From the UHGV virus genome UHGV-0247579: a stretch of 41,156 nt of DNA. One strand, 5' to 3'. The position numbers were made by a program, and so were the translations under genes. The notes beneath the pieces are model-generated. The model was given only the letters and a program-made list of their open reading frames with translations. It did not search any database and was not told where the DNA came from. This document shows positions 830-16,305 of the stretch, one piece after another. Every line of letters starts with the position of its first letter. Position 1 is the first letter of the stretch. The DNA is from a virus.

Positions 830-1549
830 ATGGCAAAATTTTTAGATTTCACAGGGCTTGGAACATTTAAAACGAAAATGCAGGAATGGGCAAATGGTGC
901 ATTTCGAAAGAAAACAGATAAGGTAGTCTCTACTGATGTTTTGTATAAATCAAAGCCGTTGGATGAGGCAATCAAAGCTGGAGAATTCAAAGGAGATAAA
1001 GGAGAGACTGGAGCAGTCGGACCCCAGGGGCCAGTAGGACCATCGGGACCGGCTGGAGCTAAAGGAGAACAGGGAATCCAGGGACCGCAAGGACCGGCAG
1101 GCGAAGCATTTAAAATCGCCAAAACATTTACATCTATAGCGGAAATGAATAAAGGATTTGCAACTGATGGAGTAAAAACCGGGCAATTCGTCATGATTGA
1201 CACAGGAAATGTACAGGATGCCGACAATGCAAAATTATACGTAAAAGGAGCCGAATCTTACACATACATTACAGACTTATCAGGAGCCACAGGTATGACA
1301 GGACCACAGGGACCACAGGGATTACAGGGTGCAACAGGTCCAGCAGGACCAGCGGGCGCAAAAGGAGAACAGGGAATCCAGGGACCAGCAGGAGCCAAAG
1401 GTGACAGAGGAGAAACAGGACCACAGGGACCTCAGGGATTAAAAGGCGAAAAAGGAGACGTTGGACCAATGGGACCACAGGGACCGGCTGGATCTGACGC
1501 AAATGTTCAGTCTATTACAAATTCCGAAATTGATGGTTTATTCTCATAA
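830..1549 (+). CDS. Collagen-like (Gly-X-Y) tail fibre protein
   Basis: Two long G-X-Y blocks ([39 protein letters not shown], and [70 protein letters not shown]). RBS AAGGAGAAG. The segment [23 protein letters not shown] is paralogous to the same motif in 39350..40447. Confidence 0.8.
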
Positions 1550-1564
1550 GGCAGGTGACACGCA

Positions 1565-1783
1565 ATGCCGGAATTTTTAAAAAAGATATTTCGGGTGGGG
1601 GAGCAGAAAGCTTCCCCCAAAAAAGTACTGGACTATGCTGGGATGGGGTACACGGTGAAAAAGATGGATAACCGGTATGTATCGAAAAAAGATGTGCCGT
1701 ACAAATTTAAGTCCATGACGCAGTCGGAATATGACAGTTTGTGGTCTAAGGATAGCAATACGGTATATCTGATTATTGGATAG
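1565..1783 (+). CDS. Hypothetical phage protein (72 aa)
   Basis: ORF with ATG start inside the tail-fibre cluster. No recognisable domain. Confidence 0.4.
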   Translation: MPEFLKKIFRVGEQKASPKKVLDYAGMGYTVKKMDNRYVSKKDVPYKFKSMTQSEYDSLWSKDSNTVYLIIG

Positions 1784-1794
1784 GGGGCGAATGG

Positions 1795-3474
1795 ATGGGC
1801 GACGAGAACAAGGAGGAAATTATACCAAGATCGGCAGACTTTTCCGGATGGACTGGATATCAAATAATGGACGGGAATTCAAACTGCCGTGCTTGGGCAG
1901 ACTGGCAGACTTCACGTGTGTTTAGGAATGGGCAAGCTGGTTGGGATGTAAGAATTATCTTAAAAGCAAATAAAACAACCTCTTCACCGACATATGGAAC
2001 TGGTAATACGCAAGTTGGTGCTCATCAAACAAATTCTTCTGTAGATACAAAGTATATGACTATTGTGCAGAGTGAAACAACATTTCGAGATGAGACTTTA
2101 TTTGTTCCGGCAGAAGCTGGAGCAGATATATCACTCGGTGCATTTGCCAATATTCACATCCCAAATGTAGTGAGTAAAGGCATTAACTTTACAGTCACAG
2201 CAAAGAGAAATCTTTGGGGTGTTTATTTTGATGCAAACGGCGGAACTGGTGCACCTAGCATGATGAAAAGACATTGGGGAGAAATTGTATATATTCCATA
2301 TACCAAACCAACAAGACCTGGATATACATTCAAAGGATGGACTAAAAGCAAAGGATCGTCTACATTGCATTATAGCCCGGGGGATCCTATAGGAGATGAT
2401 TTTGATGTAACTTTATATGCCATATGGGGTCAAAATGTTACTAGAACATGGAGCATTACATATAATGCAAATGGTGGATATAACGCTCCGGCAAAACAAA
2501 CAGCTAACGTAGGTCAATCCATTACAATTACTTATTCAAAACCCACTCGTAGCGGATATACTTTTTTAGGCTGGTCTACATGGTCTGGAGCAACAGAACC
2601 AGAGTCCGCATATACACCTGGTTATTCATATATGTCTGAATATGACACAACATTATATGCAGTATGGAAACAAAATCAGGTCACGCAATACTCTTTGTCT
2701 TTTAATCTTCAAGGGGGAACAGGCGCATTTAATACTTTGTATGGAGGATATGGTGAACGGGTACAAATTCCATATACAACTCCAACAAAAAGCGGATACA
2801 CATTTAAAGGGTGGTCAACTTCATCAACAGGAAGTCCACAGTATCAACCAGGAGACTATTATACAATTTATAGAAACACGATTTTATACGCGATTTGGAG
2901 TGAATCTACACAGTATTGCACAATTACTTTCAATGCAAATGGCGGATCCGGTGCGCCGTCAAGCCAGCAGAAAATTATAGGAGAGCAAACTTACATTCCA
3001 TATACTAAACCAACAAGATCAGGTTATACTTTTTTAGGATGGTCTACATCATCGTGGGCGACATCCGCAGATTATCAACCAGGATCCGTTTACACCCCAT
3101 ATGGAAACATGACTTTTTACGCAGTATGGAAACAGAATGTAGTTCGGACTTGGAGCATTATATATGACGCGAATGGAGGAATAAATGCGCCAGAAAGGCA
3201 GACAGCGAATGTAGGTCAGTCGATTGTAATAACACATGATAAACCTACTCGTTCTGGCTATATATTTTTAGGATGGAACAGTTGGTCAGGGGCTACAGAA
3301 CCAGATACAATGTATAATCCTGGATATTCATACACTTCCGATAGTGATACAACATTGTATGCCATATGGGAAGAAGATAAAAAAATGTATCTTGGATATG
3401 ACCGTATTAGAAAAATTTATATTGGAAACAAACAGGTAACAGCGGCATACCTGGGAACGACAAAAATATGGTAA
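1795..3474 (+). CDS. Receptor-binding / tail fibre protein with about six Listeria-Bacteroides repeat (Flg_new, PF09479-type) domains
   Basis: Recurrent units of the form F(D/N)ANGG(T/S)GAP...(I/Y)PYTKPTR(S/P)GYTF(K/L)GW(S/T)...PG...TLYA(I/V)W. RBS GGGGGCG-AATGGATG. Confidence 0.8.
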   Translation: MGDENKEEIIPRSADFSGWTGYQIMDGNSNCRAWADWQTSRVFRNGQAGWDVRIILKANKTTSSPTYGTGNTQVGAHQTNSSVDTKYMTIVQSETTFRDETLFVPAEAGADISLGAFANIHIPNVVSKGINFTVTAKRNLWGVYFDANGGTGAPSMMKRHWGEIVYIPYTKPTRPGYTFKGWTKSKGSSTLHYSPGDPIGDDFDVTLYAIWGQNVTRTWSITYNANGGYNAPAKQTANVGQSITITYSKPTRSGYTFLGWSTWSGATEPESAYTPGYSYMSEYDTTLYAVWKQNQVTQYSLSFNLQGGTGAFNTLYGGYGERVQIPYTTPTKSGYTFKGWSTSSTGSPQYQPGDYYTIYRNTILYAIWSESTQYCTITFNANGGSGAPSSQQKIIGEQTYIPYTKPTRSGYTFLGWSTSSWATSADYQPGSVYTPYGNMTFYAVWKQNVVRTWSIIYDANGGINAPERQTANVGQSIVITHDKPTRSGYIFLGWNSWSGATEPDTMYNPGYSYTSDSDTTLYAIWEEDKKMYLGYDRIRKIYIGNKQVTAAYLGTTKIW

Positions 3475-3484
3475 GGAGACGAGA

Positions 3485-3766
3485 ATGACGGAAAATGAAG
3501 TAGAAGTGAAACTTGCAGAGCACGGAAAAGAAATCGGCTCTCTAAAACACCGAATGAAAGAAGCAGAGGACGTTGTTAATGTGGTGCACCAGCTGGCGCA
3601 AGAAATGGTTGGGCTGACCAAAGAGGTCGGATTTATGAACCAAACTCTTGTGCAGCTGACCGCAAAAGTGACACATCTTGAGCAGACTCCGGCCAGACGA
3701 TGGGATGGAGTTGTAACCGCACTGATCGGAGCAGTTATCGGAGCGGTAGTAACAATGTATTTTTAA
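3485..3766 (+). CDS. XhlA-family lysis-associated membrane protein (haemolysin XhlA-like)
   Basis: 93 aa with an N-terminal coiled coil and a single C-terminal TM (GVVTALIGAVIGAVVTMYF). It sits immediately upstream of the holin, as in PBSX-type lysis cassettes. RBS AAGGAGACGAGAATG. Confidence 0.55.
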   Translation: MTENEVEVKLAEHGKEIGSLKHRMKEAEDVVNVVHQLAQEMVGLTKEVGFMNQTLVQLTAKVTHLEQTPARRWDGVVTALIGAVIGAVVTMYF

Positions 3767-3777
3767 GGAGAAAGAAT

Positions 3778-4071
3778 ATGGATCAGATTATGAATTATGT
3801 AAAACCAGAATTGATTGTTGTAGCAGTAGTACTGTATTTTATTGGAATGGGATTAAAACAGTCTCAGACAGTAAAGGATAAGTACATCCCGCTTATTTTA
3901 GGAGGTATTGGCATTGTGTTATGTGCAGTGTGGGTGATTGCATCTTGCCCCATCAGTACTGGGCAGGAGATCGCAATGGCGGTATTTACGGCGATTATGC
4001 AGGGGATTTTAACAGCCGGATTGAGTACATACGTGAATCAGACCATTAAGCAGATTGGGAAGAAAGAATAA
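3778..4071 (+). CDS. Phage holin
   Basis: 98 aa with three predicted TM helices. RBS AAGGAGAAAGAATATG. Internal ATG chosen (M27 of the track ORF 3700..4071). Located between the XhlA-like gene and the endolysin. Confidence 0.7.
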   Translation: MDQIMNYVKPELIVVAVVLYFIGMGLKQSQTVKDKYIPLILGGIGIVLCAVWVIASCPISTGQEIAMAVFTAIMQGILTAGLSTYVNQTIKQIGKKE

Positions 4072-4098
4072 AACACGTATAAATATGTGCAAAAACTG

Positions 4099-4128
4099 TT
4101 GACACACGTGCTGACACGTGCTATAATA
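4099..4128 (+). promoter_or_regulatory. Near-consensus sigma-70-type promoter of hicAB, with tandem CACGTG-containing repeats in the spacer (putative operator)
   Basis: TTGACA -35, an 18-bp spacer cacgtgctgacacgtgct (direct repeat GACACGTGCT x2) and TATAAT -10. RBS GGAGG and the ATG at 4150 follow. Coordinates approximate. Confidence 0.6.
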
Positions 4129-4149
4129 ATACCATGAAAGGAGGAAATA

Positions 4150-4335
4150 ATGAAAACATCAGAACTTGTTAAAATACTCAAGAAGAATGGCTGTTTTTTC
4201 GTGGAACATGGTAAAGAGCATGATAAGTGGCACAGCGATTTAACCGGAAAGGATGTGCGAATCCCAAGACATAAAAGTAAGGAAATCCCGACCGGAACAG
4301 CGGACAGAATACTAAAGGATGTTGGGCTGAAATAA
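4150..4335 (+). CDS. hicA: Type II toxin HicA (mRNA interferase)
   Basis: 61 aa with the YcfA/HicA-like signature ...FVEHGKEHDKWHSDLTGKDVRIPRHKSKEIP.GTADRILKDVGL. Confidence 0.85.
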   Translation: MKTSELVKILKKNGCFFVEHGKEHDKWHSDLTGKDVRIPRHKSKEIPTGTADRILKDVGLK

Positions 4336-4375
4336 GCCCAATCCTTTGATGAGATAATATAAGGAGGTCAACAGA

Positions 4376-4777
4376 ATGGCAAAATACGTATATCCAGCAG
4401 TGTTTACACCAGAGGAAGATGGGAAATATTCGGTGTTTTTTCCAGATTTAGATGGGTGCTATACTTGCGGAGATGATCTGCAGGATGCAATTGTAATGGC
4501 GGAGGATGTGCTTGCATTTTATCTTTATGATGAAGAAGTAGCACAGAACGAAATACCAAAATCATCTACTACTGCAGAAATTGAATTAAAAGATGGAGAA
4601 TTTGTGAATTATATCGCATGCGATACCATTGAATACGCAAAAATGCATAATAATCGGGCGGTAAAGAAAACACTGACAATACCCGAATGGTTGAACGAAG
4701 CTGCGACGAGAGCAGGAGTGAATTATTCGCAGGTGCTTCAGGAAGCGCTAATGAGTAAATTGAATATAAGTAGATAA
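4376..4777 (+). CDS. hicB: Type II antitoxin HicB with C-terminal DNA-binding (RHH-like) tail
   Basis: 133 aa. N-terminus is HicB-like (YPAVF.PEEDGKYSVFFPDLDGCYTCGDDLQDAIVMAEDVLA). C-terminus reads TLTIPEWLNEAATRAGVNYSQVLQEAL. Sits directly downstream of hicA. Confidence 0.85.
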   Translation: MAKYVYPAVFTPEEDGKYSVFFPDLDGCYTCGDDLQDAIVMAEDVLAFYLYDEEVAQNEIPKSSTTAEIELKDGEFVNYIACDTIEYAKMHNNRAVKKTLTIPEWLNEAATRAGVNYSQVLQEALMSKLNISR

Positions 4778-4780
4778 TTT

Positions 4781-4810
4781 AAGAGAGCTTGGAAACAGGC
4801 TCTCTTTTAT
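4781..4810 (+). terminator. Rho-independent terminator after hicB
   Basis: Hairpin AAGAGAGC-ttggaaacag-GCTCTCTT followed by TTTTATT. Approximate coordinates. Confidence 0.55.
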
Positions 4811-4828
4811 TGTGCGACATCGCACGGA
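4810..4828. repeat. 19-bp repeat TTGTGCGACATCGCACGGA containing the 14-bp perfect palindrome GTGCGACATCGCAC (copy 1 of 2 identical copies; copy 2 at 5110..5128)
   Basis: The 19-mers are identical and exactly 300 bp apart. Each is followed by a Shine-Dalgarno sequence and an ATG (4843 and 5141). Confidence 0.7.
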
Positions 4829-4842
4829 AAGGAGTTAAAATC

Positions 4843-5109
4843 ATGGGAAGCAAGGAATTTTTAAACATTTGCAAGGCAAAGGTAGCAGATTATTTTAACC
4901 AGAATAAAGACAAGACTGATACATCTGACAACATGACGGTAGATGATGTATTTGTGGTTTGGTATTGTAAGACACTGCAAAATCACAAGGCGCTGCTTAG
5001 TACGCCGGTAAGTGATGGAATGTATTATGAGATCACTTACAGTGGAGATAAGAATGAGATCTACTTTGATGCTTATAAAAAGTGGGAAAACATTAAATTT
5101 GATATGTAA
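4843..5109 (+). CDS. Hypothetical protein (88 aa) flanked by the 19-bp palindromic repeats
   Basis: RBS AAAGGAG 9 nt upstream of the ATG at 4843. Lies within the track ORF 4789..5109. Confidence 0.5.
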   Translation: MGSKEFLNICKAKVADYFNQNKDKTDTSDNMTVDDVFVVWYCKTLQNHKALLSTPVSDGMYYEITYSGDKNEIYFDAYKKWENIKFDM

Positions 5110-5128
5110 TTGTGCGACATCGCACGGA
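5110..5128. repeat. Second copy of the 19-bp TTGTGCGACATCGCACGGA repeat
   Basis: Identical to 4810..4828. Followed by GGAGGAGG and the ATG at 5141. Confidence 0.7.
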
Positions 5129-5140
5129 GGAGGTGAGATC

Positions 5141-5230
5141 ATGAGCGAACAGAACGAATTTGGAAGAACAACAGCAGAAGAACTGGAAAAAGCGTTTGAA
5201 GTAGAAGAACAGGAGAAAGAGAAAGAATGA
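5141..5230 (+). CDS. Tiny acidic ORF (29 aa, MSEQNEFGRTTAEELEKAFEVEEQEKEKE) translationally coupled to the endolysin
   Basis: Strong RBS GGAGGAGG. Its stop overlaps the endolysin ATG (ATGA). Below typical gene-calling length, so speculative. Confidence 0.3.
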   Translation: MSEQNEFGRTTAEELEKAFEVEEQEKEKE

Positions 5231-5964
5231 GTATCTGTAGAGGAATTGCCGGCAGGAGAGGGATGAATCCAGTCGGTATTTTTATCCACAACGGGGCAGA
5301 CAGCCAGAACGCAACATCGGAATACTATAAAAACTACTTGCAGAGAGCGAACTTGGAGAATGGATTTGCGCATTATTATGTTTGTAGTGATGGAATTCTG
5401 CAAGCAGAGGATGATTCAAACTGCGCTTGGCATTGCGGCGACTTAAACGGAAATCTTAATTTCTTGGGAATAGAAGTCTGCCAGAGTATGGGCGATCTGA
5501 ATGTATTTAAAGCGAATGAGGAAAAAGCATTACAGTTGGCAGCACAGAAGTGCAAGCAGTATGGAATTACACCAAGTGCAAGCACGATCATGCTGCATCA
5601 GGAGGTGTTTGCAACCGCTTGTCCGCACAGATCAGTGGAGATTCACGGCGGCGCAGCGCAGACAAAAGCCTATTTTATTAACCGTATCAAGGAGCTTATG
5701 AACGGAAACCAAAGCACAACAACAGATCAGGAAGGAGAAGAGACTATGCAGTGTATGTTTACGGTGAAAGGAAAAGGATGTGTTTATTGGATGCATGATG
5801 GAGTGGTTACAGCTTTAGCACACCCTGACGAGTTAAAAATCATTCAGCAAATTTATAAGGATAACTATGGACATGATATGCCATGTTACAGTTGGAGCAA
5901 GCCAGCGCCATGGCATACTAGGCTGATGGAACCATTATATCGTGAACCCGTAAAATCTATTTAA
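5227..5964 (+). CDS. Endolysin: N-acetylmuramoyl-L-alanine amidase (Amidase_2/PGRP fold) with an unassigned about 80-aa C-terminal domain
   Basis: PGRP-type motifs are present (...GIFIHNGADSQNATSEYY...HYYVCSDG...WHCGD..N...LGIEVCQ...). It is the last gene of the lysis cassette. Confidence 0.85.
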   Translation: MSICRGIAGRRGMNPVGIFIHNGADSQNATSEYYKNYLQRANLENGFAHYYVCSDGILQAEDDSNCAWHCGDLNGNLNFLGIEVCQSMGDLNVFKANEEKALQLAAQKCKQYGITPSASTIMLHQEVFATACPHRSVEIHGGAAQTKAYFINRIKELMNGNQSTTTDQEGEETMQCMFTVKGKGCVYWMHDGVVTALAHPDELKIIQQIYKDNYGHDMPCYSWSKPAPWHTRLMEPLYREPVKSI

Positions 5965-6216: not shown

Positions 6217-7749
6217 TTATTTCGGTACTTTCGGGTACACATCAATCATAAATTCAGAGTTTTTCTGGTTCTTTTTATTCCGTTTTGTTTTGGTCAGTAC
6301 AATCCGGTCGATCAGTTTCCTTAAAGCGCTGTTCTTTTCCGGGATAGTCAGGGAGTTCCATTCGCTTAACAAGTTCTTGCACTTCGGGACAAAATTCTTT
6401 CGATTTGCCTGCCTCGCAATCGTAGTATGTAAATCTTCCTGGGCAGCAGTGATATTGTTCATGCAGTCTCTGATCCGCTGTTCCAGTGCATTGGATCGTT
6501 CAATGAAAATCTCTTTCGTGTAAATTCCCTGCTCTAAAAAATCAAATAAGGATTCTCTCTGCTTCAAAAGCGTCTGATGTTCAGTCTCAAAATTTGTGAC
6601 GATCAATTCTTTTGCGGCAATGGCAGCAGTATCTTCCTCATGAGTGTCAGAAAATTCATACTTGGCTATGTAGTCTTTCAGCCATCCCAGAAGAGCTTCT
6701 TCCAGTTCATCAATCCGTATTCCGACCGTGGAACATTCGGTATACTGGCAGATCAGCACATCATAGGGCGTTTTCGTCTGCGCTTTCTTGCGGACCATAA
6801 GCCGGCCGCATTGCGAGCATCTGACCAGACCTGCAAATAAATTTTGGATCGGTCTGTCATTTCTGACCGGAGAGGAAAAACAGCCTTTTGGTTGATTTGC
6901 ACGTTTGAACAGGTCTGCGCTGATGCGTGGCTCCCATGCTGCATCTGCGAGAATATAATCCGTAGCATTCGGCCGGGACTTTACCACACGACCATCCTTT
7001 ACGGCTCTGACTGTCTTACGATATCCCCAACGGACTTTCCCAATGTTTGCCGGATTTGAGATGATACCCTTGAGGGTGGAGGGAGAGAACGGCTTTCCGC
7101 TCCTTGCAAGGATTCCCATATTGGACATATAGGTACAGGCTTTTTGGTATCCGTACTGCTTATTTCCACACAGATCATACATCAGATCGAGAACCGGAGC
7201 TTCTGTCTGGCTGGGAGTAAGAGAGTAGTGTTTTCCATCTGGTGCAATGATACGCTCCCATCCATAAGGAGCAACATTGCCAACGTAATAACCATCAGAA
7301 CTGGAACGTTCCCTGCCGCGCTGCATCCGGCGTTTAATTGTTGCGTATTCCCGGCGGCTCATGAATAAGCTGAACTCAAAATATTCATTGTCATATTCAT
7401 TAGCTGGGTCGTAGGTTTTATTCGGTGTTACAATCCGGGTGCCGGAATAGAAAAATGCACGCTGCACACGCCCCTGATCGATCGTATCACCTCTGGCCAG
7501 ACGATCTACGTCCATTACGAGGGCGCCATCCCACATACAGGCTTCTACCTCAGAGAGGACTTGCGTCATGACTGGTCGGGCATCGATACTGTCTCCGGAC
7601 ACAACTTCCCGGTAAATCGCACCGATCGGAAGAGAAAGCGTTTTGGCCAACTCCAATAGAGTGGTAATGTGGCGTTCCAGGACATCGATACCGAGTGCTT
7701 CCAGTTCAGCGTCTTTTCTGGATTTTCTGGCATAGATAAAATAAGACAT
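6217..7749 (-). CDS. Large serine recombinase (phage integrase)
   Basis: 510 aa. N-terminal resolvase catalytic domain (YARKSRKD...RLARG), a recombinase domain, a zinc ribbon (CSQCGRLM...CQYTEC) and a C-terminal coiled coil. Confidence 0.9.
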   Translation of the reverse strand: MSYFIYARKSRKDAELEALGIDVLERHITTLLELAKTLSLPIGAIYREVVSGDSIDARPVMTQVLSEVEACMWDGALVMDVDRLARGDTIDQGRVQRAFFYSGTRIVTPNKTYDPANEYDNEYFEFSLFMSRREYATIKRRMQRGRERSSSDGYYVGNVAPYGWERIIAPDGKHYSLTPSQTEAPVLDLMYDLCGNKQYGYQKACTYMSNMGILARSGKPFSPSTLKGIISNPANIGKVRWGYRKTVRAVKDGRVVKSRPNATDYILADAAWEPRISADLFKRANQPKGCFSSPVRNDRPIQNLFAGLVRCSQCGRLMVRKKAQTKTPYDVLICQYTECSTVGIRIDELEEALLGWLKDYIAKYEFSDTHEEDTAAIAAKELIVTNFETEHQTLLKQRESLFDFLEQGIYTKEIFIERSNALEQRIRDCMNNITAAQEDLHTTIARQANRKNFVPKCKNLLSEWNSLTIPEKNSALRKLIDRIVLTKTKRNKKNQKNSEFMIDVYPKVPK

Positions 7750-7936: not shown

Positions 7937-8164
7937 CTATGCTGCTTTGTTATAATCGACTACTGCAAACTCGGTCAGCATAGTTTTGAGTTTTTCCAGA
8001 ATAGTTTCAATTTTCTTCAGGGTAACACCATTCAGATATTCTTCGCCACATTGAGTACATTTTTTACAAGGAACATTCTTGATGATAATGTAACAATTGT
8101 TATATTCTGTCATATAAGTCGTTGTAGATTCTTCTACATTACCTTTACATGTAAAACACATCAT
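7937..8164 (-). CDS. YgiT-type (MqsA-like) zinc-finger protein, putative antitoxin
   Basis: 75 aa with C..C....C..C (CFTCKG...CKKCTQCGEEY), matching the YgiT-type zinc-finger family. 4-nt overlap with the upstream DUF4258 gene. Confidence 0.6.
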   Translation of the reverse strand: MMCFTCKGNVEESTTTYMTEYNNCYIIIKNVPCKKCTQCGEEYLNGVTLKKIETILEKLKTMLTEFAVVDYNKAA

Positions 8165-8484
8165 GATTTTTTCTCCTTTCTTGTCTCAAGATCCGATTCC
8201 CATTTTTCGGAATCAGGATAATATGCTGTTACGATCCAAAGTGTTTCCAAATTACTTCCAACTACTACGTGAAGGTATTGATTCTTGATCGAAAGACCAA
8301 GGATCAGACAACTTGGGAACGGATAGTCATCTGGGTATTGCTCAATTATTTTTCCACTTTGAATACAACTTATGACATCGTCTAGTAAAATTCCACGTTG
8401 CTCCAAACGTTTTGCCGCATGGAGTGTTATCTCAATATTTTCTAAAGAACATATTTCTTTTATAGAATCTATGGTAAGTTCCAA
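8161..8484 (-). CDS. DUF4258-family protein, putative toxin partner of the zinc-finger protein
   Basis: 107 aa with DUF4258-like motifs (HAAKRLEQRGI...LILG...LHVVVG...TAYYP). Confidence 0.55.
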   Translation of the reverse strand: MELTIDSIKEICSLENIEITLHAAKRLEQRGILLDDVISCIQSGKIIEQYPDDYPFPSCLILGLSIKNQYLHVVVGSNLETLWIVTAYYPDSEKWESDLETRKEKKS

Positions 8485-8502: not shown

Positions 8503-9048
8503 TTATTTCAATAAATCATCAATGCAGATCTCGAAATCCTCAAATATTTTTAATTTGAGAATATCGTGAAAAGGTACAATCACCGGCGCGACATCTTCCT
8601 CATATCGGTATACCGTTGTGCGTTCTCTGGCAGGATCCACAATCCAATACTCCCGAACACCTGCGTCAGTATAGAGCGTATTTTTGGTAGAATAATCCAT
8701 TTTACGGCTGCTCGGTGAAACGATTTCGATGATAAAGTCAGGTGCTCCTTCACAGCCACGGTGTGAAATTTTGTTAGAATTACAGACAATGCTAATATCA
8801 GGTTCTACATAGTTTGAATCATCGTCTTTAATGAAAACAGCAAATGGAGCAGGATAAACTTTACAATTACCGTGCTTTTTACTGATATAGTTTTGCAACT
8901 CAGTTGTAAATAAAGCAACTAATTCCTGATGCAATGGGGATGGCGGCGCCATGTTATAAATTTGTCCGTCAATCAGCTCCGCTCGTTGCCCATCTGGAAG
9001 AGCATAGATGTCATCGATTGTATGTGTAGTTGTTTTTAATAATGGCAT
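8503..9048 (-). CDS. Uma2-family (DUF820, PD-(D/E)xK-like) endonuclease
   Basis: 181 aa with the characteristic YALPDGQRAELIDGQIY...APP...H and PDFIIEIVSPSS...D...EYWIVDP motifs. Confidence 0.8.
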   Translation of the reverse strand: MPLLKTTTHTIDDIYALPDGQRAELIDGQIYNMAPPSPLHQELVALFTTELQNYISKKHGNCKVYPAPFAVFIKDDDSNYVEPDISIVCNSNKISHRGCEGAPDFIIEIVSPSSRKMDYSTKNTLYTDAGVREYWIVDPARERTTVYRYEEDVAPVIVPFHDILKLKIFEDFEICIDDLLK

Positions 9049-9231
9049 GATATCACATCCTTTCTTGATTTAATTTGAATTCTCCCAGTATTTTGTATTA
9101 TGTATAATCGACGAAACAGTTACACCTATCATGTAATTGCCTGCTGTGGAGCAGGGGGAGAAAAATTTACAATTTGTCTATTGATGTATACAATATATTT
9201 GAATATAATTAAGAAAAAAGGAGGGCTTGAT

Positions 9232-9486
9232 ATGAAAAAACATATTATTTATGTAGTAAATAGTTTAATTTTTATTTTATGTTTTCTTTTTATATTGAGC
9301 AGCTTTTTCAAAATTATATCACATACATGTATAGAAGCATATCTATCTGATTCTAATAGTCTAGTTATTGTTTGGATAGTTGGGATTGTTGTAGCAGTTA
9401 TTTTTACTCATCCTCTGTATCAGGAGATTCTTGCATGGAGGCTTCCTCTGAAAGAGTGGCTGCAGCTTCATCATCTAAAGCAATAG
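9232..9486 (+). CDS. Small membrane protein (85 aa)
   Basis: TTTACA-17-TACAAT promoter-like sequence and an AAAGGAGGG RBS upstream of the ATG. One strong TM helix. The 3' end overlaps the convergent 9404..10567 gene by about 80 bp, so the extent is uncertain. Confidence 0.35.
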   Translation: MKKHIIYVVNSLIFILCFLFILSSFFKIISHTCIEAYLSDSNSLVIVWIVGIVVAVIFTHPLYQEILAWRLPLKEWLQLHHLKQ

Positions 9487-10567
9487 GCTCGACTTCAAGA
9501 GCAACACATCCTGATGCTAAAGCATCAACTGGTCCACGTAAGGCTTCTGGATTGATTCCAGAGGCTTTAATTTTATTGTACAATTCGAGTTTCTTTTCAA
9601 GTACTTGCAATTCTTTTTCGTCTGCTTCGGCATGTTTTAATCTGTAATCATCTTTAGCTGATAAAATAGATTTTATAATTTCTATAATCCCTGGCAGTTT
9701 AAATGAAAAAGCGCTACCGCCACCTAGTAATATTAAAATTCCGAGTATGACAGTCCAGTTATTTGTCAAGAATTCTTTGACTTGATCTAATAAAAATATA
9801 ATGTCTCCCGGAGAGTTTAGTGTTACTTGAGTCGATATATTCTTTTCAGGAACTATTGATGATAAAAATTCCGTTGCTCCATAGAGAAGGCTATTAATAG
9901 AACGAGGACCAATAGGCGTTTGTTTTCGGACACTAAATACTACTGAAATATCATTTTCAAGCATGTAATAGTTGTACAAAGTATTTAATATTTGTTTGGC
10001 GTAGCTGTCTAAGCTTGAAATTCCGTGATAGTTTGAAATAGCTCTACATAAAGAATAGTTTAATTCTTCATTTTTTACAGTTCGAAGTAAAGTAATATGT
10101 CTTCTCTTTTTGTAAGGACATGACACATCGTTTATATCGACATCGTGGTTTTCGATTCGAAATATGATATTTTTTTCCAATTCTACAGTTTTGGTTTCGT
10201 CTTCAAAATAATCACCTGCAAGAGCAAAAGTAATATAGCTACTGCGTGCACTTGGAATAACTAGGATATCATCAGTATGTATTTCATTAATAAAAGAAAT
10301 ACATTTATTAATCACTGTAGAGGGACGTTGTATTTCATTGAACTCCATTAAGATATCATCTTTTAAAGAATCTCTGGAAGATTCGGAAAAGTCAGTGTTT
10401 TGAGTAATATTATTCCAAGCTAATGCAACAAAGCGCTTCGAAATAAACTCATTATAAAAATACCCTTTTTTTGTTCTTATCATCCAAAATCTTTTAGTGC
10501 GTGGAATAACAGGAACCGAAAAAGTATCAATCCAATTTAGCACTTCATTTTCTTCATGTAATTCCAT
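9404..10567 (-). CDS. Unknown 387-aa protein: about 270-aa N-terminal cytoplasmic domain, one TM segment, then a coiled-coil / acidic tail. Candidate superinfection-exclusion or abortive-infection factor
   Basis: Long ORF with RBS GGAGAAAAGAGGAGAAAATATT before the ATG. TM helix WTVILGILILLGGGSAFSF. AT-rich relative to the flanks. No family recognised from sequence. Confidence 0.6.
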   Translation of the reverse strand: MELHEENEVLNWIDTFSVPVIPRTKRFWMIRTKKGYFYNEFISKRFVALAWNNITQNTDFSESSRDSLKDDILMEFNEIQRPSTVINKCISFINEIHTDDILVIPSARSSYITFALAGDYFEDETKTVELEKNIIFRIENHDVDINDVSCPYKKRRHITLLRTVKNEELNYSLCRAISNYHGISSLDSYAKQILNTLYNYYMLENDISVVFSVRKQTPIGPRSINSLLYGATEFLSSIVPEKNISTQVTLNSPGDIIFLLDQVKEFLTNNWTVILGILILLGGGSAFSFKLPGIIEIIKSILSAKDDYRLKHAEADEKELQVLEKKLELYNKIKASGINPEALRGPVDALASGCVALEVEPIALDDEAAATLSEEASMQESPDTEDE

Positions 10568-10631: not shown

Positions 10632-11117
10632 TTATATCATTTCCATAACTGCTAAATTAGGAATAAAATAAATAACATAATTATCTAAAGTAGTATATTC
10701 ACCATATTTTCCTTTGTAACAGTCAATGGCTTCTTGCAGATACGTTTCTGTGACATGAAGATGTTCTGCAATCTCGTATCTATTCTGGCATCCAGCATTA
10801 AAAGCGGATATAATACCACGCAATCCGATCATCCGGTTATATCCATATAATCGTGCTTGTTGTTCCTGCTTTCTATTCCACGTATCTTTCATATCAAGGA
10901 TATTGCCTATAGATGTAAAATTGTGCCCAAGCTCTTCAGCGAGAACGCAGGCTTTTTCTGCAGATGTTTCCAAGTTATTTGATATTGCAATTCTGTTTCT
11001 ATATATTAGTCCATCGCTGCTGGATAGAGCCTTTTCGCGGACGATAAGTCCGCTGTTATTCGCCTCTTCTAAAAGCTCTTCATAAATTGTCATTGTATCA
11101 CTCCCATTCAGAGTCAT
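10632..11117 (-). CDS. ImmA/IrrE-family metallopeptidase (anti-repressor protease)
   Basis: 161 aa with an HEXXH-like motif AEELGHNF. Directly downstream of, and overlapping, the XRE repressor gene, as in ImmR/ImmA modules. Start uncertain. Confidence 0.75.
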   Translation of the reverse strand: MTLNGSDTMTIYEELLEEANNSGLIVREKALSSSDGLIYRNRIAISNNLETSAEKACVLAEELGHNFTSIGNILDMKDTWNRKQEQQARLYGYNRMIGLRGIISAFNAGCQNRYEIAEHLHVTETYLQEAIDCYKGKYGEYTTLDNYVIYFIPNLAVMEMI

Positions 11118-11595
11118 TCATCATAATGTCTTGATCATGTTTTCTCATTTCATCTGTTACTTTAATGTCGGTTCGTTCATGAGCTGCTAATACTTCTAAA
11201 TGTTTGTTGGATTGCTCAGGACATATGTTATATACTTTTGCCTCTTTTATTTCAGAAGTAGATATTGAATTTTCATATTCCTTATCTAAAACAAAATCAA
11301 CAACTTCTTTTCCGTGTGGGTTTAATTTGCGGTAGCGTTCTATGATGGTCCATTCCTTATTTGTGAATAATACATCTTCAACAGTATTTGAAAAAGTTTC
11401 CATTATATTATTACATTTGTAAATTTGGCAAAGCGCTAAGAACATGTCTGCATTTGCGGAGTTACGTCCACTTTCGTAGCCATAGAGTGTTTTATCAGAA
11501 ATATCAATATTAAAATTCTTCAGTCTATCAGCAACCTCTTTTCGAGTCATATTATTATTTTCTCTAAGAAGTTTTAACTTTTCTCCGATATTCAT
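11098..11595 (-). CDS. XRE-family HTH repressor (cI/ImmR-like)
   Basis: 165 aa with an N-terminal HTH (IGEKLKLLRENNNMTRKEVADRL...LYGYESG). Divergent from a Cro-like gene. Confidence 0.8.
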   Translation of the reverse strand: MNIGEKLKLLRENNNMTRKEVADRLKNFNIDISDKTLYGYESGRNSANADMFLALCQIYKCNNIMETFSNTVEDVLFTNKEWTIIERYRKLNPHGKEVVDFVLDKEYENSISTSEIKEAKVYNICPEQSNKHLEVLAAHERTDIKVTDEMRKHDQDIMMNDSEWE

Positions 11596-11690: not shown

Positions 11691-11725
11691 TTGACAATCT
11701 CTAAAACAAAGAATATAATAATGCC
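11691..11725 (+). promoter_or_regulatory. Consensus promoter for the cro-like gene, with flanking short inverted repeats (candidate operators)
   Basis: TTGACA-17 bp-TATAAT. The inverted repeat ACAAAGAA...TTCTTTGT brackets the -10. Approximate coordinates. Confidence 0.55.
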
Positions 11726-11981: not shown

Positions 11982-12129
11982 AAAAATGGAAGTACAGGTA
12001 TTAGTTCATACAGAAGATGCTTGTGAAAAAGTAAAAGAGCTGATAGAAGAATTGAAAAAAGCCAATTCATTAGCAGATGAATTGGCCGAAAAAATAAAAG
12101 ATAACCTAAAAATTGATATCAAGATCTAA
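11968..12129 (+). CDS. Small coiled-coil protein (53 aa)
   Basis: ATG overlaps the end of the cro-like gene. Charged helical sequence. Short ORF, not in the track. Confidence 0.3.
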   Translation: MKENEKMEVQVLVHTEDACEKVKELIEELKKANSLADELAEKIKDNLKIDIKI

Positions 12130-12303
12130 TACAACTTCGTTTTCACAATGCGGACAAATATTATTGCCAGGATAGGCATCAAACAATTTTTCGCAATGTG
12201 GACATTCAACCTCATAAGAATCTGATAATAAAGATTCTTTAGTCTGATCTATGATGTCAGACATAATTTCATCAGGATTGAAATCTGTTTTGAATGTAAT
12301 CAT
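12106..12303 (-). CDS. Small zinc-ribbon protein (CPHC...CPHC)
   Basis: Two CxxC pairs. Internal start MITFK chosen (track ORF 12106..12321). Confidence 0.45.
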   Translation of the reverse strand: MITFKTDFNPDEIMSDIIDQTKESLLSDSYEVECPHCEKLFDAYPGNNICPHCENEVVLDLDINF

Positions 12304-12511
12304 TAAATCACCGCCTTTCATACAAAATTAAAACAAATGTTCTTCGAGTAGAATAATACTAAAAATTTTGCGTGTCAAGAAAAATACTAAATACTGTGTA
12401 AAAAAATACTGTTGACGCAAGATATAGTGAAAAAGGTGAGTGGTGAGAATGCAAGAAATTGATGGAGGAAGAATATCAAATTATCTGTAGGAAATTTCTG
12501 ATACAGGAATT

Positions 12512-12636: not shown

Positions 12637-12828
12637 ATGGGAATACGAAAAGAGATCATAGTATATGTAGACAAAGAGTTGACGAAAAAGGAGAGAAAAA
12701 ATTATAAAAAAGAAAATCCAGGTAAACGTCTGTGCTTTCGGTTGCGTTACCCGAATTTTCTTAAGTACCTTATGTTGATATCATATGCAGTACTTTTTCT
12801 TAGTGCAATGATAAGAATCCTACAATGA
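12637..12828 (+). CDS. Hypothetical small protein (63 aa) with a C-terminal hydrophobic segment
   Basis: Preceded by the junction repeat and RBS GAGGAAG. ATG start. Confidence 0.4.
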   Translation: MGIRKEIIVYVDKELTKKERKNYKKENPGKRLCFRLRYPNFLKYLMLISYAVLFLSAMIRILQ

Positions 12829-13147
12829 CGGAAATTAAGGCGATCAATGTACCAATCATCCATCTGCGGGATCCGCGTAACTCTGTTTCAATCAGAACAT
12901 CTCCAGATGGGAGAGTGATGAGATAACCATCCAGGCCATTGTATTCTAATCCTTTGTCTGGAGAATCATCCATTTTGCAAGCCACAGAACGGCAAGAAAT
13001 AAATTTTTGATCAATGAGTTGAGGGATAATCTCATCTGCGTAGTTTCTATCTATACCTCTATGTTTAAAACATAGCAAATCCAAACAAGAAACATAAGGG
13101 TGTTTATAAATATATTTCAAAATACGAATGGATTTCTTATTTAGCAT
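12800..13147 (-). CDS. Hypothetical protein (115 aa) with a C-terminal TM helix
   Basis: RBS AAAGGAGA 8 nt before the internal ATG (MLNKKSIRILKYIY...). Track ORF 12800..13177. Confidence 0.4.
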   Translation of the reverse strand: MLNKKSIRILKYIYKHPYVSCLDLLCFKHRGIDRNYADEIIPQLIDQKFISCRSVACKMDDSPDKGLEYNGLDGYLITLPSGDVLIETELRGSRRWMIGTLIALISVIVGFLSLH

Positions 13148-13312
13148 CGGAGCATCTCCTTTCATAATACTCGGCATTGGCAGATGCCTGTATCTACAGT
13201 ATAGGAGACAAAAGGGTAAAAGACAACAGATATGAAGTTTATTGAAAGAAGTATGTTAGGGAAAACAGGTGTAAGTGTTGAGTATTTTGGGAGTAGGAAG
13301 CGAGGAGAGGAA

Positions 13313-13490
13313 GATGGTGAGAAAAAGAAAAAGACATATAGGAGTTGATTTGGTAATAACAACTATATGCCTTATGGCTATTACAACATTATTAGGAAAG
13401 GAGATAAATCTTACAAAGTTAGATATTACATACTTATATATGATTGTTTTTCTATGCGTTCAATCAATTAGTCAAAAAGGAGGAGATTAA
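13313..13490 (+). CDS. Hypothetical small membrane protein (58 aa)
   Basis: ATG preceded by the junction repeat and AGGAGAGGAAG. Two hydrophobic helices. Confidence 0.35.
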
Positions 13491-13991
13491 TGCTTTGATT
13501 TCTTCACTATAAAGATTTAAGAAGTAAGCAATCAACCATCCAATTAAATTTACAAATTTGGTAGAACCTTCTTTGAAATCAAATCCTATCCAGTTAAGAA
13601 ACGTGGAAGGGATACGAAGAAACTTTTTTATGGAAACAATAGGGTTCAATGCCTTTAAGAAATTTGAAACAGCATAATTACGTTCCATACGAATATCGTT
13701 ATAAATTCGGATTGCATTTGCGTAAGTAGTTTCTTGAGAAGCGCCGTATTCGAGAGTTGGGGTATAAAATCCGCAATATTTAACAATTTTGGGATAATAA
13801 AATAACAAACTATTAAGAGAATCGGCGTAATCATCAAGCAAAACAAGCGCTCTGTGAGAGCTAGGTTTTGCAGATGCTAGGTATTTTTCTATGACATTAA
13901 TTATGGAATCAATATCTTTGATTTTAAAGAAAGAGTGAAAAATGGTGCATATGTAAATTAAAGTTGGGATAGTAAGTAAATATTTAAGCAT
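13464..13991 (-). CDS. Hypothetical protein (175 aa), N-terminal signal/TM, AT-rich
   Basis: RBS AAAGGAAATAACT before the ATG (MLKYLLTIPTLIY...). Track ORF 13464..14207, trimmed to the internal start. Confidence 0.4.
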   Translation of the reverse strand: MLKYLLTIPTLIYICTIFHSFFKIKDIDSIINVIEKYLASAKPSSHRALVLLDDYADSLNSLLFYYPKIVKYCGFYTPTLEYGASQETTYANAIRIYNDIRMERNYAVSNFLKALNPIVSIKKFLRIPSTFLNWIGFDFKEGSTKFVNLIGWLIAYFLNLYSEEIKALISSFLTN

Positions 13992-14152
13992 AGTTATTTC
14001 CTTTCGATATTTTGTATGAACAGTATAACATGTGGAAAACAAGAATGTAACTACTGAGTATTTTTTGGAGTAGGAACAGGAAAGCAACTCGGAAATAAAG
14101 GCTGATGGACAACATACATAGGACAACCAACCTGCATACATAATAGCGAGGT

Positions 14153-14311
14153 GATGATTTTGATCGTAGAAACAGTAAAAGTAAAAAATGCAACAATCCG
14201 GGTACATGATGACTGTTATGCAGAACGAACAGAAGAAGAGGTGAAAAGCCTGATAGACGGATGCTGCAGGATCATCCAGGAGGCATTATTACGAAAAGAG
14301 AAAACCGCCTG
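14153..14311 (+). CDS. Hypothetical small protein (52 aa)
   Basis: RBS GAGGTG before the ATG. Follows the third junction repeat. Confidence 0.3.
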
Positions 14312-15143: not shown

Positions 15144-15866
15144 ATGTATAAACAAAAGAGTTATGACCTGGGAGACATCAGAGAAGTGATGGAGTATCAC
15201 AATGGGAGATATGGTGCTCCGGGAATGCCGAGAATGAAAAAGAAGAAAGCCACACCGGAGCAGATCCGAAAGGTGAATCAGTGGAATAAAGAACGGCAGT
15301 GCTGGAGAAAGATGAAGCTGAATTTCCAGGAGAATGACTACTGGGTGACATTGACTTATAAATTGGAGAACCGGCCACAGGATATGAAAGAAGCGGTCAA
15401 AGACATACGAAAGTGGATTCAGAAAGTACGTGCACAATACAAAAAACAGGAAGTGGAGTTGAAATGGATGCTGCATACCGAGATTGGAAGCCGGGGTGGG
15501 GTTCATCACCATCTGGTCATCAACCGGATTCCGGATGCAGATCTGATCATGCGCAAAGCATGGGAAAAGGGAGGCGTCCACATCGATCTGTTGTATGACG
15601 AGGGCGGATTGCGGAAACTGGCTGAGTATTTAAGTAAAACGCCGGACGGAGAAAACAAGCTGAAAGAGAGTCGGTACTCCTGCAGCAGGAATTTAAAGAT
15701 TCCAGTGGCAGAAGTGAAGGTTTACAAAAGGAAAACATGGAAAGACGAACCGAAGCCGCAAAAAGGATACTATCTTGACAAAGAAACGTATCATGAGGGA
15801 ATCAATCCGGTAACAGGATATAAATACCGAAGATACATCCTGATCCGTTTGAACAGGAGAATTTGA
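15144..15866 (+). CDS. HUH-superfamily rolling-circle replication initiator (Rep_1, pC194/pUB110-like)
   Basis: Motif 1 WVTLTY (FLTLT-like), motif 2 GGVHHHLVIN (HUH), motif 3 region KLAEYLSKT (E..Y..K). Confidence 0.65.
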   Translation: MYKQKSYDLGDIREVMEYHNGRYGAPGMPRMKKKKATPEQIRKVNQWNKERQCWRKMKLNFQENDYWVTLTYKLENRPQDMKEAVKDIRKWIQKVRAQYKKQEVELKWMLHTEIGSRGGVHHHLVINRIPDADLIMRKAWEKGGVHIDLLYDEGGLRKLAEYLSKTPDGENKLKESRYSCSRNLKIPVAEVKVYKRKTWKDEPKPQKGYYLDKETYHEGINPVTGYKYRRYILIRLNRRI

Positions 15867-15867
15867 T

Positions 15868-16305
15868 ATGAAAGAGGTAAATATTTACATAAGGACAAGT
15901 CTGACAGGTCCATGTATCAAAGATGGAAGATGGGCGGCCGCAATGGAATGTCAGACAAGCAAAGGACCGGCGGTCAAAGGAATTTGCGGGGAAGAACAGG
16001 AGACGACCTATTATCGCCTGGTGCTGCTTGGAATCGTGAAATCCTTGAAAATACTAAATGCGCCGTGCAATGTGACCCTGTATACGGACTGTATTTTTAT
16101 CAAGAACATGATCGAAAACGGGAAGCCGGAGCAGTGGAAGCGGGCGGAATGGAGAAAACCGTCCGGGAAAGAGGTGAAAAACCAGGAATTGTGGCAGCAG
16201 TATCAGGCGTTGGCAGAGCGGCATGAAATAGCCGTCAGATTTAGTAAACATCACGATTACGTGGAAAAATTAGAGGGATTACTGGAGGAAAAACAGCATG
16301 TTTGA
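15868..16305 (+). CDS. RNase H-like fold protein, apparently catalytically degenerate
   Basis: Alignable to RNase HI (LYTDCIFIKNMIENGKPEQWKRAEWRKPSGKEVKNQELWQQ vs STDSQYV...W...W....VKNVDLWQ). The positions of D10 and E48 are R and L. Confidence 0.5.
   Translation: MKEVNIYIRTSLTGPCIKDGRWAAAMECQTSKGPAVKGICGEEQETTYYRLVLLGIVKSLKILNAPCNVTLYTDCIFIKNMIENGKPEQWKRAEWRKPSGKEVKNQELWQQYQALAERHEIAVRFSKHHDYVEKLEGLLEEKQHV

Follow-up and report, generated by a model that had tools for sequence, protein, structure and literature searches.

A conserved two-gene prophage cassette that couples a predicted membrane-anchored reader-type protein to a small membrane partner and may exclude competing phages

The virus genome UHGV-0247579, a stretch of 41,156 nucleotides (nt) called the window below, carries an open reading frame (ORF) for a protein of 387 amino acids (aa) at positions 9404-10567, in the lysogeny region. 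The question raised by this locus is what such a protein does there, and whether it acts alone. An earlier note on the same DNA had proposed a single-gene, membrane-anchored effector of the abortive infection (Abi) or superinfection exclusion (Sie) kind. The ORF was confirmed as described, with an ATG start and a GGAG-rich ribosome-binding site (RBS) upstream of it, but the single-gene view did not hold: an adjacent gene for a two-helix membrane protein, overlooked in the earlier note, is always present (Table 1). The functional unit is thus a two-gene cassette, conserved across several phyla and hitherto uncharacterised. With a probability of roughly 0.45, we propose that this locus is an accessory cassette that excludes competing phages, built as a Rex-like module of a sensor plus a membrane component.

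The pairing of the two genes was apparent wherever the family was followed. An equivalent small gene was called in all 12 contigs around three homologues of the large protein (87, 62 and 55% identity). A wider screen covered 76 IMG/VR loci, 12 genome loci and annotated phage and plasmid records, dereplicated at ≤80% identity, and in every dereplicated locus having downstream sequence the stop codon of the large gene adjoins, or is overlapped by, a small hydrophobic ORF; truncated or frameshifted copies were the only exceptions. The pairing extends over Clostridia, Streptococcus, Staphylococcaceae, Bacillus, Fusobacterium and Bacteroidota. Most clades have a convergent partner, with an overlap of 23-83 nt, and in loci L053-L060 and L076-L086 it is co-directional, starting a few nt after the stop of the large gene or across it. 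Because the linkage holds whatever the orientation, it points to a partnership at the level of the proteins. The partners range from 57 to 196 aa and have two helices; those of the Bacteroidota type (~195 aa) have two hydrophobic segments around a long helical stretch.

The small protein of the window was modelled by AlphaFold2 as a hairpin of two helices (residues 2-37 and 41-82) with a mean predicted local distance difference test score (pLDDT) of 76. Outside the overlap with the large gene, conservation in its gene is highest at codon position 2 (0.32 versus 0.52 and 0.54), and within the overlap all three codon positions are constrained (~0.3), which is consistent with dual coding. In one locus, L059, a single TAG to TCG change (7045-7047, compared with 2321-2323 in L055) fuses both genes in frame into a 403-aa ORF; this was seen in one contig only and is possibly a sequencing error. 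The fusion suggests that the C-terminus of the large protein and the N-terminus of the small protein would lie on the same side of the membrane. Searches with the small protein returned eight sequence homologues and nothing in Pfam, PADLOC or the annotated PHROGs. A role as a holin was considered and rejected, as the phage carries its own lysis cassette, with an XhlA-like protein and a multi-transmembrane holin-like ORF (both recognised by sequence) upstream of the amidase gene, and no holin PHROG was matched by any of ten partner proteins. The small gene itself is situated ~3.3 kb downstream of the end of the amidase gene (5964). The partner ORF is unannotated in the streptococcal satellite Javan462 (L107, ~4486-4700 (-)), in phage phiARI0460-1 (L109, 4046-4258 (-)) and in a Mammaliicoccus prophage (L110, 7084-7353 (-)), and because it is uncalled in these records the pairing is invisible in current annotations.

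The large protein belongs to a sizeable family. A word-indexed search found 289 homologues, mostly of 385-390 aa, and a profile search of 1.84 billion cluster representatives (50% identity) found 1030 at E ≤ 1e-3 and 705 at E ≤ 1e-10. It matched phrog_10226, a family of unknown function, at E=1.2e-56 (aa 15-336 against profile positions 10-334 of 369). Scans of the large protein against Pfam-A, in a copy lacking the PF28530 model, and against NCBIfam gave no matches; many homologues (53-91% identity) and all streptococcal relatives carry precomputed PF28530 (DUF8426) matches. By homology, the first ~180 residues of the large protein probably belong to this Pfam family. An alignment of 32 members has the invariant motifs FWMxRT, GYFY, VAxAWN, DILxIP, DVSCPYKKRR, SNYHG and SPG, and GGG in the hydrophobic segment; the N-terminal domain of the window protein reads FWMIRT, GYFY, VALAWN, DILVIP, YFED and CPYKKRRHI at its motifs.

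An AlphaFold2 model of the large protein built from the family alignment (pLDDT 85, predicted template modelling score 0.85) divides it into two domains, a membrane segment and a helical C-terminal region (Table 1). The best fold matches of the N-terminal domain are PUA-like, of the YTH/EVE type; the top PDB matches in Foldseek were all YTH domains, at a weak E of ~0.02. Sequence comparison gave no Pfam match to YTH, EVE or ASCH for the large protein and nothing significant in the PDB, either with the large protein or with a 17-sequence profile of the N-domain, and the sole match in the BFVD viral fold library was one uncharacterised family member. The fold assignment rests on the model, as no link to YTH, EVE or ASCH was found at the sequence level. 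The conserved residues W28, W51, N52 and Y120 are candidates for a putative base-binding pocket, in which the aromatic W28, W51 and Y120 could form a cage. The hydrophobic segment was modelled as a short helix (aa 271-282) followed by a GGGS turn. Across the family it is an uncharged stretch with a median length of 18 aa (11-20), with GG in 36 of 39 representatives and K/E-x-P-G next to it. Only helices are predicted after this segment (residues 294-302, 304-311, 317-335 and 340-356 in the model), and the acidic tail ends in SMQESPDTEDE.

These results revise the picture of the protein given in the earlier note in several respects. The hydrophobic segment at aa 271-289, followed by helices and an acidic tail, was borne out. 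The single cytoplasmic N-terminal domain of ~270 aa is instead two domains, one PUA-like and one ferredoxin-like. The statement that this region has no recognisable family motif was wrong, given phrog_10226, a partial PDC-S02 match, PF28530 on the homologues and the PUA-like fold.

The relatives of the N-terminal domain connect it to restriction. The PADLOC model of PDC-S02 (PDLC04806) matches aa 26-177 of the large protein at E=7.5e-11, over profile positions 3-138 of 324, and in distant members PDC-S02 models reach E=1e-29 with only the first ~140-160 of the ~324 profile positions covered. Mrr_cat, the nuclease that is the C-terminal hallmark of PDC-S02, had no Pfam match in the large protein. 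Membership of PDC-S02 was therefore rejected: the N-terminal domain is there, and the nuclease and full-length coverage are not. When the N-domain was searched by tblastn against plasmids, it was found in genes annotated "restriction endonuclease" and "AAA family ATPase". A Proteus plasmid protein is a full-length PDC-S02 (E=2e-87; positions 7-329 of 334) with Mrr_cat as its C-terminal half (E=5e-23), and its gene adjoins those of a DEAD-box helicase and a GIY-YIG nuclease. In a Klebsiella McrB-like AAA_5 ATPase, a DUF8426-type domain is inserted at aa ~337-445, and an McrC gene follows. In protein P0334, precomputed annotation has PF28530 together with Mrr_cat. The motifs W-x-[IV]-R, [AG]-[IL]-G-W, GD-[IV]-[IV]-x-[IV]-P, Y-[YF]-E and KRR-x-[IV] are common to PDC-S02 and the window family. 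In all members of the latter that were examined, including those at ~20-30% identity, the ferredoxin-like domain, hydrophobic segment and helices replace the nuclease. By these motifs and matches, the window family shares a restriction-associated, reader-type domain yet differs from PDC-S02.

The domain also occurs by itself. The conjugative plasmid pCV56A of Lactococcus lactis (L105) encodes a 204-aa DUF8426-type protein (3986-4600) directly downstream of an AbiQ/ToxN toxin gene and adjoining a 307-aa protein (4689-5612). As it consists of the N-domain alone, it was not accepted as a full family member; it gave a faint Pfam EVE match (E=0.16), the only trace of EVE found. Here the same sensor may be arranged in a two-gene unit of another kind.

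Across genomes the cassette occupies accessory ("moron" or cargo) slots of prophages, satellites and plasmids. A recurring layout runs from the repressor (with or without ImmA) through the large gene and the small gene to the integrase. It is found in Lachnospiraceae prophages with tyrosine or serine integrases and unrelated replication modules, in S. agalactiae phiGBSVK-D, in S. pneumoniae IPP63 and phiARI0460-1, in the S. pyogenes satellite Javan462, in Fusobacterium phage phiPaco and in a Mammaliicoccus prophage beside comK. The pneumococcal prophage members of the family are IPP63, phiARI0460-1 and SF39. An identical large protein occurs in phages with different replication modules. Some clades carry the two genes on the lytic strand, with a late-regulator-like gene on one side and the small terminase on the other; some copies follow lysis genes, and one family member is on a 9-kb mobilisable Bacillus plasmid. 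In L113, genes for a helix-turn-helix (HTH) protein, DruA, NurA and a DUF87 (HerA-like) ATPase (1157-5635) are followed immediately by a Bacteroidota-type DUF8426 pair, a setting that resembles a defence island.

A census of Pfam families covered the two nearest genes per side of 39 dereplicated loci. The 78 upstream proteins included 17 HTH_3-type regulators, six Peptidase_M78, five Peptidase_S24, four Sigma70_r4 and a few products of lysis genes, and the 58 downstream proteins included 12 Phage_integrase, ten Resolvase and terminase subunits. Uma2, which follows the cassette in the window, was rejected as a cognate nuclease effector, since it accounts for only two of the 58 downstream proteins.

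The two genes also carry signals for expression, among which the promoter sites are consensus matches only (sigma-70-like). A perfect sigma-70-type match at 11691-11719 (+) lies opposite a divergent promoter-like site at 11649-11621 (-). The latter is upstream of the repressor, ImmA and large genes, with no terminator-like site found between them, and the large gene is probably co-transcribed with the repressor and ImmA in the lysogen. For the small gene, a terminator-like hairpin is embedded in the codons of the large gene for KASGINPEAL (Table 1). Its folding is strand-specific, with -19.1 kcal/mol on the (+) strand (z=-3.8; 0 of 200 shuffles) versus -10.3 kcal/mol on the (-) strand (z=-1.3). 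The hairpin recurs in homologues to ~46% protein identity and covaries: 85% of the cells are paired, seven of the 13 pairs have changed on both sides, and the covariation score is 0.351, versus 0.183 for shuffles (0 of 500) and 0.10-0.13 when the hairpin is slid. The conservation of the KxSGINPE peptide may partly reflect this RNA structure. Because the small-gene transcript would run to the terminator inside the large gene, the two mRNAs probably overlap by ~135 nt or more.

Table 1. Features of the two-gene cassette and of its neighbours in the window
Feature	Position	Strand	Details
Large gene	9404..10567	(-)	387 aa, ATG start; DUF8426-family protein (phrog_10226)
N-terminal PUA-like domain, DUF8426	10028..10516	(-)	aa ~18-180; fold from model
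Middle ferredoxin-like alpha/beta domain	9782..10021	(-)	aa ~183-262; ends in invariant SPG motif; from model
Hydrophobic membrane segment	9701..9757	(-)	aa 271-289, WTVILGILILLGGGSAFSF; invariant GGG
C-terminal helical region and acidic tail	9407..9688	(-)	aa 294-356 and aa ~361-387
Small partner gene	9232..9486	(+)	84 aa, two hydrophobic helices, basic tail (…LAWRLPLKEWLQLHHLKQ); ATG, RBS AAGGAGGG
3'-end overlap of large and small genes	9404..9486	both strands coding	83 nt, convergent
Two overlapping sigma-70-like promoter matches, small gene	9166..9209	(+)	TTTACA-17-TACAAT and TTGATG-17-TATAAT, 10/12 each
Terminator-like hairpin, small gene	9539..9569	(+)	13 bp, U-rich tract next; 52 nt past small-gene stop
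Serine recombinase	6217-7749	(-)	same strand as large gene
DUF4258 protein and YokU/MqsA-like zinc-ribbon protein	7937-8484	(-)	downstream of large gene
Uma2-family protein	8503-9048	(-)	Pfam E=6e-36; PADLOC candidate PDC-S03, E=3e-45
ImmA-like metalloprotease, Peptidase_M78	10632-11117	(-)	Pfam E=4e-6
HTH repressor	11098-11595	(-)	Pfam match

The surroundings of the cassette in the window are largely as the earlier note had them: the large gene, serine recombinase, ImmA and HTH repressor genes share a strand, and Uma2 and a pair resembling a toxin-antitoxin (TA) system lie downstream. That pair, a DUF4258 protein (E=1e-25) and a 75-aa zinc-ribbon neighbour of YokU/MqsA-like type whose genes overlap by 4 nt, looks like a TA pair. 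Several cargo genes (Uma2, DUF4258, zinc ribbon) are thus stacked between the cassette and the integrase. The GC content across the large gene is 0.31-0.34, versus ~0.40-0.48 in the structural genes and 0.35-0.40 in the immediate flanks; the description of the gene as AT-rich holds against the structural genes, but its contrast with the flanks is modest, as the entire accessory and regulatory region at 8-14 kb is AT-rich too. The short hairpin said to separate the large gene from ImmA did not withstand scrutiny, since the intergenic sequence folds no better than shuffled sequence (z=-0.7). When the region was compared with isolated phages by megablast, the only match was one of 70 nt, to Ruminococcus gnavus phages.

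Elsewhere in the window, three more (-) ORFs are set among the (+) early genes: a zinc-ribbon protein (12106-12321; phrog_9188), a 125-aa protein with a hydrophobic C-terminal tail (12800-13177) and a 247-aa protein (13464-14207; phrog_18631). These may be additional cargo expressed in the lysogen. At 15144-16305 (+), ORFs of 240 and 145 aa may resemble a rolling-circle-type replication initiator and an RNase H, a reading based on homologous loci with PF23343 REP_ORF2-G2P followed by RNase_H. The lysis cassette contains a putative (+) pair, HicA-like (61 aa, 4150-4335) and HicB-like (133 aa, 4376-4777) by sequence, placed between the holin-like ORFs (3485-4071) and the amidase (5227-5964).

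What the analysis shows directly is how the protein is predicted to fold and what it is homologous to, that the two genes are paired and where they lie in genomes, and that the RNA hairpin is present. We prefer the exclusion module because the cassette combines a restriction-associated PUA-like domain, a membrane segment and an obligate partner, lies in accessory slots and is probably expressed in the lysogen. The defence- or TA-like neighbours in the window (Uma2 as PDC-S03, and DUF4258 with the zinc ribbon) were also counted in its favour. The earlier idea of a membrane-tethered sensor carried as lysogeny cargo thus survives in its restriction-linked N-domain, reader fold and accessory slots, but not as a single gene. 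In such a module, the large protein would be the sensor, its cytoplasmic DUF8426 domain recognising nucleic acid, possibly with modified bases. Rather than being wired to a nuclease, this domain would be held at the membrane by the conserved hydrophobic segment, where the large protein would work together with the obligate small protein and its two membrane helices. Binding of incoming or replicating foreign nucleic acid would change the membrane assembly of anchor, C-terminal helices and small partner. The membrane could then be depolarised or permeabilised, an abortive infection like that of lambda RexA/RexB, or the entry of DNA could be blocked, which would be superinfection exclusion. The small gene would be transcribed convergently from its own promoter to the terminator within the large gene, and the overlapping mRNAs may regulate each other. 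In this scheme we infer the ligand, the topology, the interaction between large and small proteins, the effect on the membrane and the anti-phage activity.

Several points weigh against this proposal. The large protein matches no validated system in PADLOC 2.0. The earlier claim that it cannot be matched to anything named does not hold, given phrog_10226, DUF8426 and the partial PDC-S02 match. PDC-S02 is itself a candidate defence family that is unvalidated. The hydrophobic segment is only 11-15 aa long in some clades, and the charges flanking it differ between clades. In addition, genes in the same slot may modulate induction, SzaL in a pneumococcal phage being an example (PMC12637031).

The last point leads to an alternative in which the cassette modulates the switch between lysogeny and lysis. 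Here, the membrane-anchored sensor would read a nucleic-acid or nucleotide signal (single-stranded DNA, damage, competence) and tune induction, excision or lysis timing. In most copies the large gene indeed comes straight after the repressor or ImmA gene and before that of the integrase, and is probably part of the repressor operon, and szaL, in the same slot of pneumococcal prophages, alters activation and burst timing (PMC12637031). Such a role is harder to reconcile with cassettes on the lytic strand by the terminase, after lysis genes or on a small plasmid, or with the non-prophage Bacteroidota context next to DruA/NurA/HerA-like genes. ImmA is absent in L005-L008, other genes intervene in L008, and the association of the large gene with its small partner is closer than that with any regulator. 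We regard a modulator as unlikely, if worth keeping in mind. A further alternative, which we consider distinctly unlikely, is an addiction or TA-like module whose small protein would be a membrane toxin, curbed by the large-gene transcript (type I logic), the large protein or both. Gram-positive type I TA loci, many of them prophage-borne, are typically convergent, overlap at their 3' ends and encode small hydrophobic toxins. Where the genes of the cassette are convergent, they have 3' overlaps; the small gene has promoter-like sites of its own and a conserved terminator inside the large gene, which would give a long mRNA overlap, and the cassette is carried on a small plasmid and on satellites. 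Several clades, however, have co-directional and probably co-transcribed genes without the antisense overlap or the embedded terminator, the partner is larger than typical type I toxins, and a conserved multidomain reader-type protein of 330-390 aa far exceeds what an antitoxin needs.

The two remaining accounts are less probable still. The p16.7 protein of phi29 consists of a transmembrane helix, a coiled coil and a DNA-binding domain, and the large protein, with a putative nucleic-acid-binding domain, a membrane anchor and a helical, possibly oligomerising region, might likewise tether DNA to the membrane for replication, segregation or control of uptake, without any role in exclusion. Against this, the large gene is on the lysogeny strand and away from the replication genes in most phages, is accompanied by unrelated replication modules, and has DUF8426 relatives that are linked to nucleases and McrB rather than being replication proteins; a tether is very improbable. 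Least probable of all is the single-gene Abi/Sie effector of the earlier note, with the small ORF a chance reading frame. The large protein alone does hold both sensor-like and membrane parts, but the small ORF keeps its architecture in three phyla and in either orientation, and it has an RBS, promoter-like sites, a covarying terminator and a coding signature.

Returning to the two-gene exclusion module, a broader and rather doubtful extension would be "restriction without cutting": a widespread, unrecognised anti-phage class whose reader domain, in the style of type IV restriction, would act not through a nuclease but through a membrane effector complex that includes an obligate two-helix partner. 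Foreign nucleic acid, possibly carrying modified bases, would be sensed at the membrane, and exclusion or abortive infection would follow. If true, the cassette would be a standard component of the lysogeny module in phages of Clostridia, streptococci, staphylococcal relatives and Fusobacterium. As a defence system it would be a common new type, with ~1000 clusters at 50% identity, in human-gut Clostridia and pathogenic streptococci. The reader domains of modification-dependent restriction would have been rewired to membrane effectors, like the swaps between nuclease and transmembrane effectors in other defence families. It would also explain an unannotated, recurrent gene pair in prophages and satellites of S. 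pneumoniae, S. pyogenes, S. agalactiae and F. necrophorum, and would bear on host range in phage therapy and on prophage-mediated competition in the gut. Whatever its function, the locus is a clean natural case of convergent, overlapping protein genes with a strand-specific terminator, supported by covariation, inside a coding sequence, and its small partner gene is missed by some annotation pipelines.

No description of the architecture was found in the literature searched on PDC-S02, PF28530, prophage EVE/PUA/YTH membrane proteins or the lactococcal plasmidome, and its closest known counterparts each share part of it. PDC-S02 has a homologous N-terminal domain; PDC-S02 proper ends in the Mrr_cat PD-(D/E)xK nuclease, whereas the window family has the ferredoxin-like domain, hydrophobic anchor, helices and membrane partner in its place. 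In fold, the modelled N-domain would resemble those of VcaM4I PUA-HNH, the YTH-like N-domain of T. gammatolerans McrB, EVE/THYN1 and the eukaryotic YTH readers of N6-methyladenosine (m6A), several of them modified-base readers of type IV restriction, but the family has no sequence-profile similarity to Pfam YTH, EVE or ASCH and no nuclease or GTPase partner. The Shield protein ShdA (transmembrane helix, coiled coil and RmuC-like nuclease; PMC11090510) is a defence protein that is anchored in the membrane and combines a helical region with a domain directed at DNA. Its domain order is reversed relative to the window protein, which is without a nuclease and had no PADLOC ShdA match. The same kind of slot, in the lysogeny module of a streptococcal prophage, is occupied by thaL, described as transmembrane with a DNA-binding-type domain (PMC12637031). 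The annotation of thaL is HIRAN, which gave no Pfam match in the pneumococcal family members even at E ≤ 10. HIRAN is OB-fold-like (PMC11090510), versus the PUA-like best fold matches of the DUF8426 domain. A HIRAN identity for the window family, which was compared without the thaL sequence itself, is thus unsupported by Pfam or fold matches.

Single membrane-anchored exclusion proteins are also encoded in this part of prophage genomes: lactococcal Sie2009, S. thermophilus Ltp and orf203 of phage Sfi21 are Sie proteins in the slot between repressor and integrase. PdpSau of S. aureus, with an N-terminal anchor and a basic C-terminus, brings about membrane depolarisation and abortive infection (PMC10127798). 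Like the cassette, all four are membrane-associated prophage accessory genes near the integrase or repressor. Their sequences and architectures are unrelated to it, with no PUA-like domain and no obligate small partner, and the Sie and Ltp proteins act on DNA injection from outside or within the membrane.

The closest parallel in organisation is Rex of phage lambda, in which a sensor-like protein and a small membrane protein are encoded beside the repressor. No PADLOC match pointing to RexA/RexB homology was found for either the large or the small protein, assuming that PADLOC 2.0 holds Rex models. A second parallel is gp30/gp31 of mycobacteriophage Sbash, reported as a prophage two-component membrane Abi system (PMC6426596). 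With RexA/RexB the cassette shares its logic: a larger protein that resembles a sensor is encoded together with a small membrane protein of several helices, in the lysogeny region beside the repressor. The window cassette differs in that its sensor has an anchor of its own, its partner has two helices rather than four, and its genes are convergent and overlapping in most clades.

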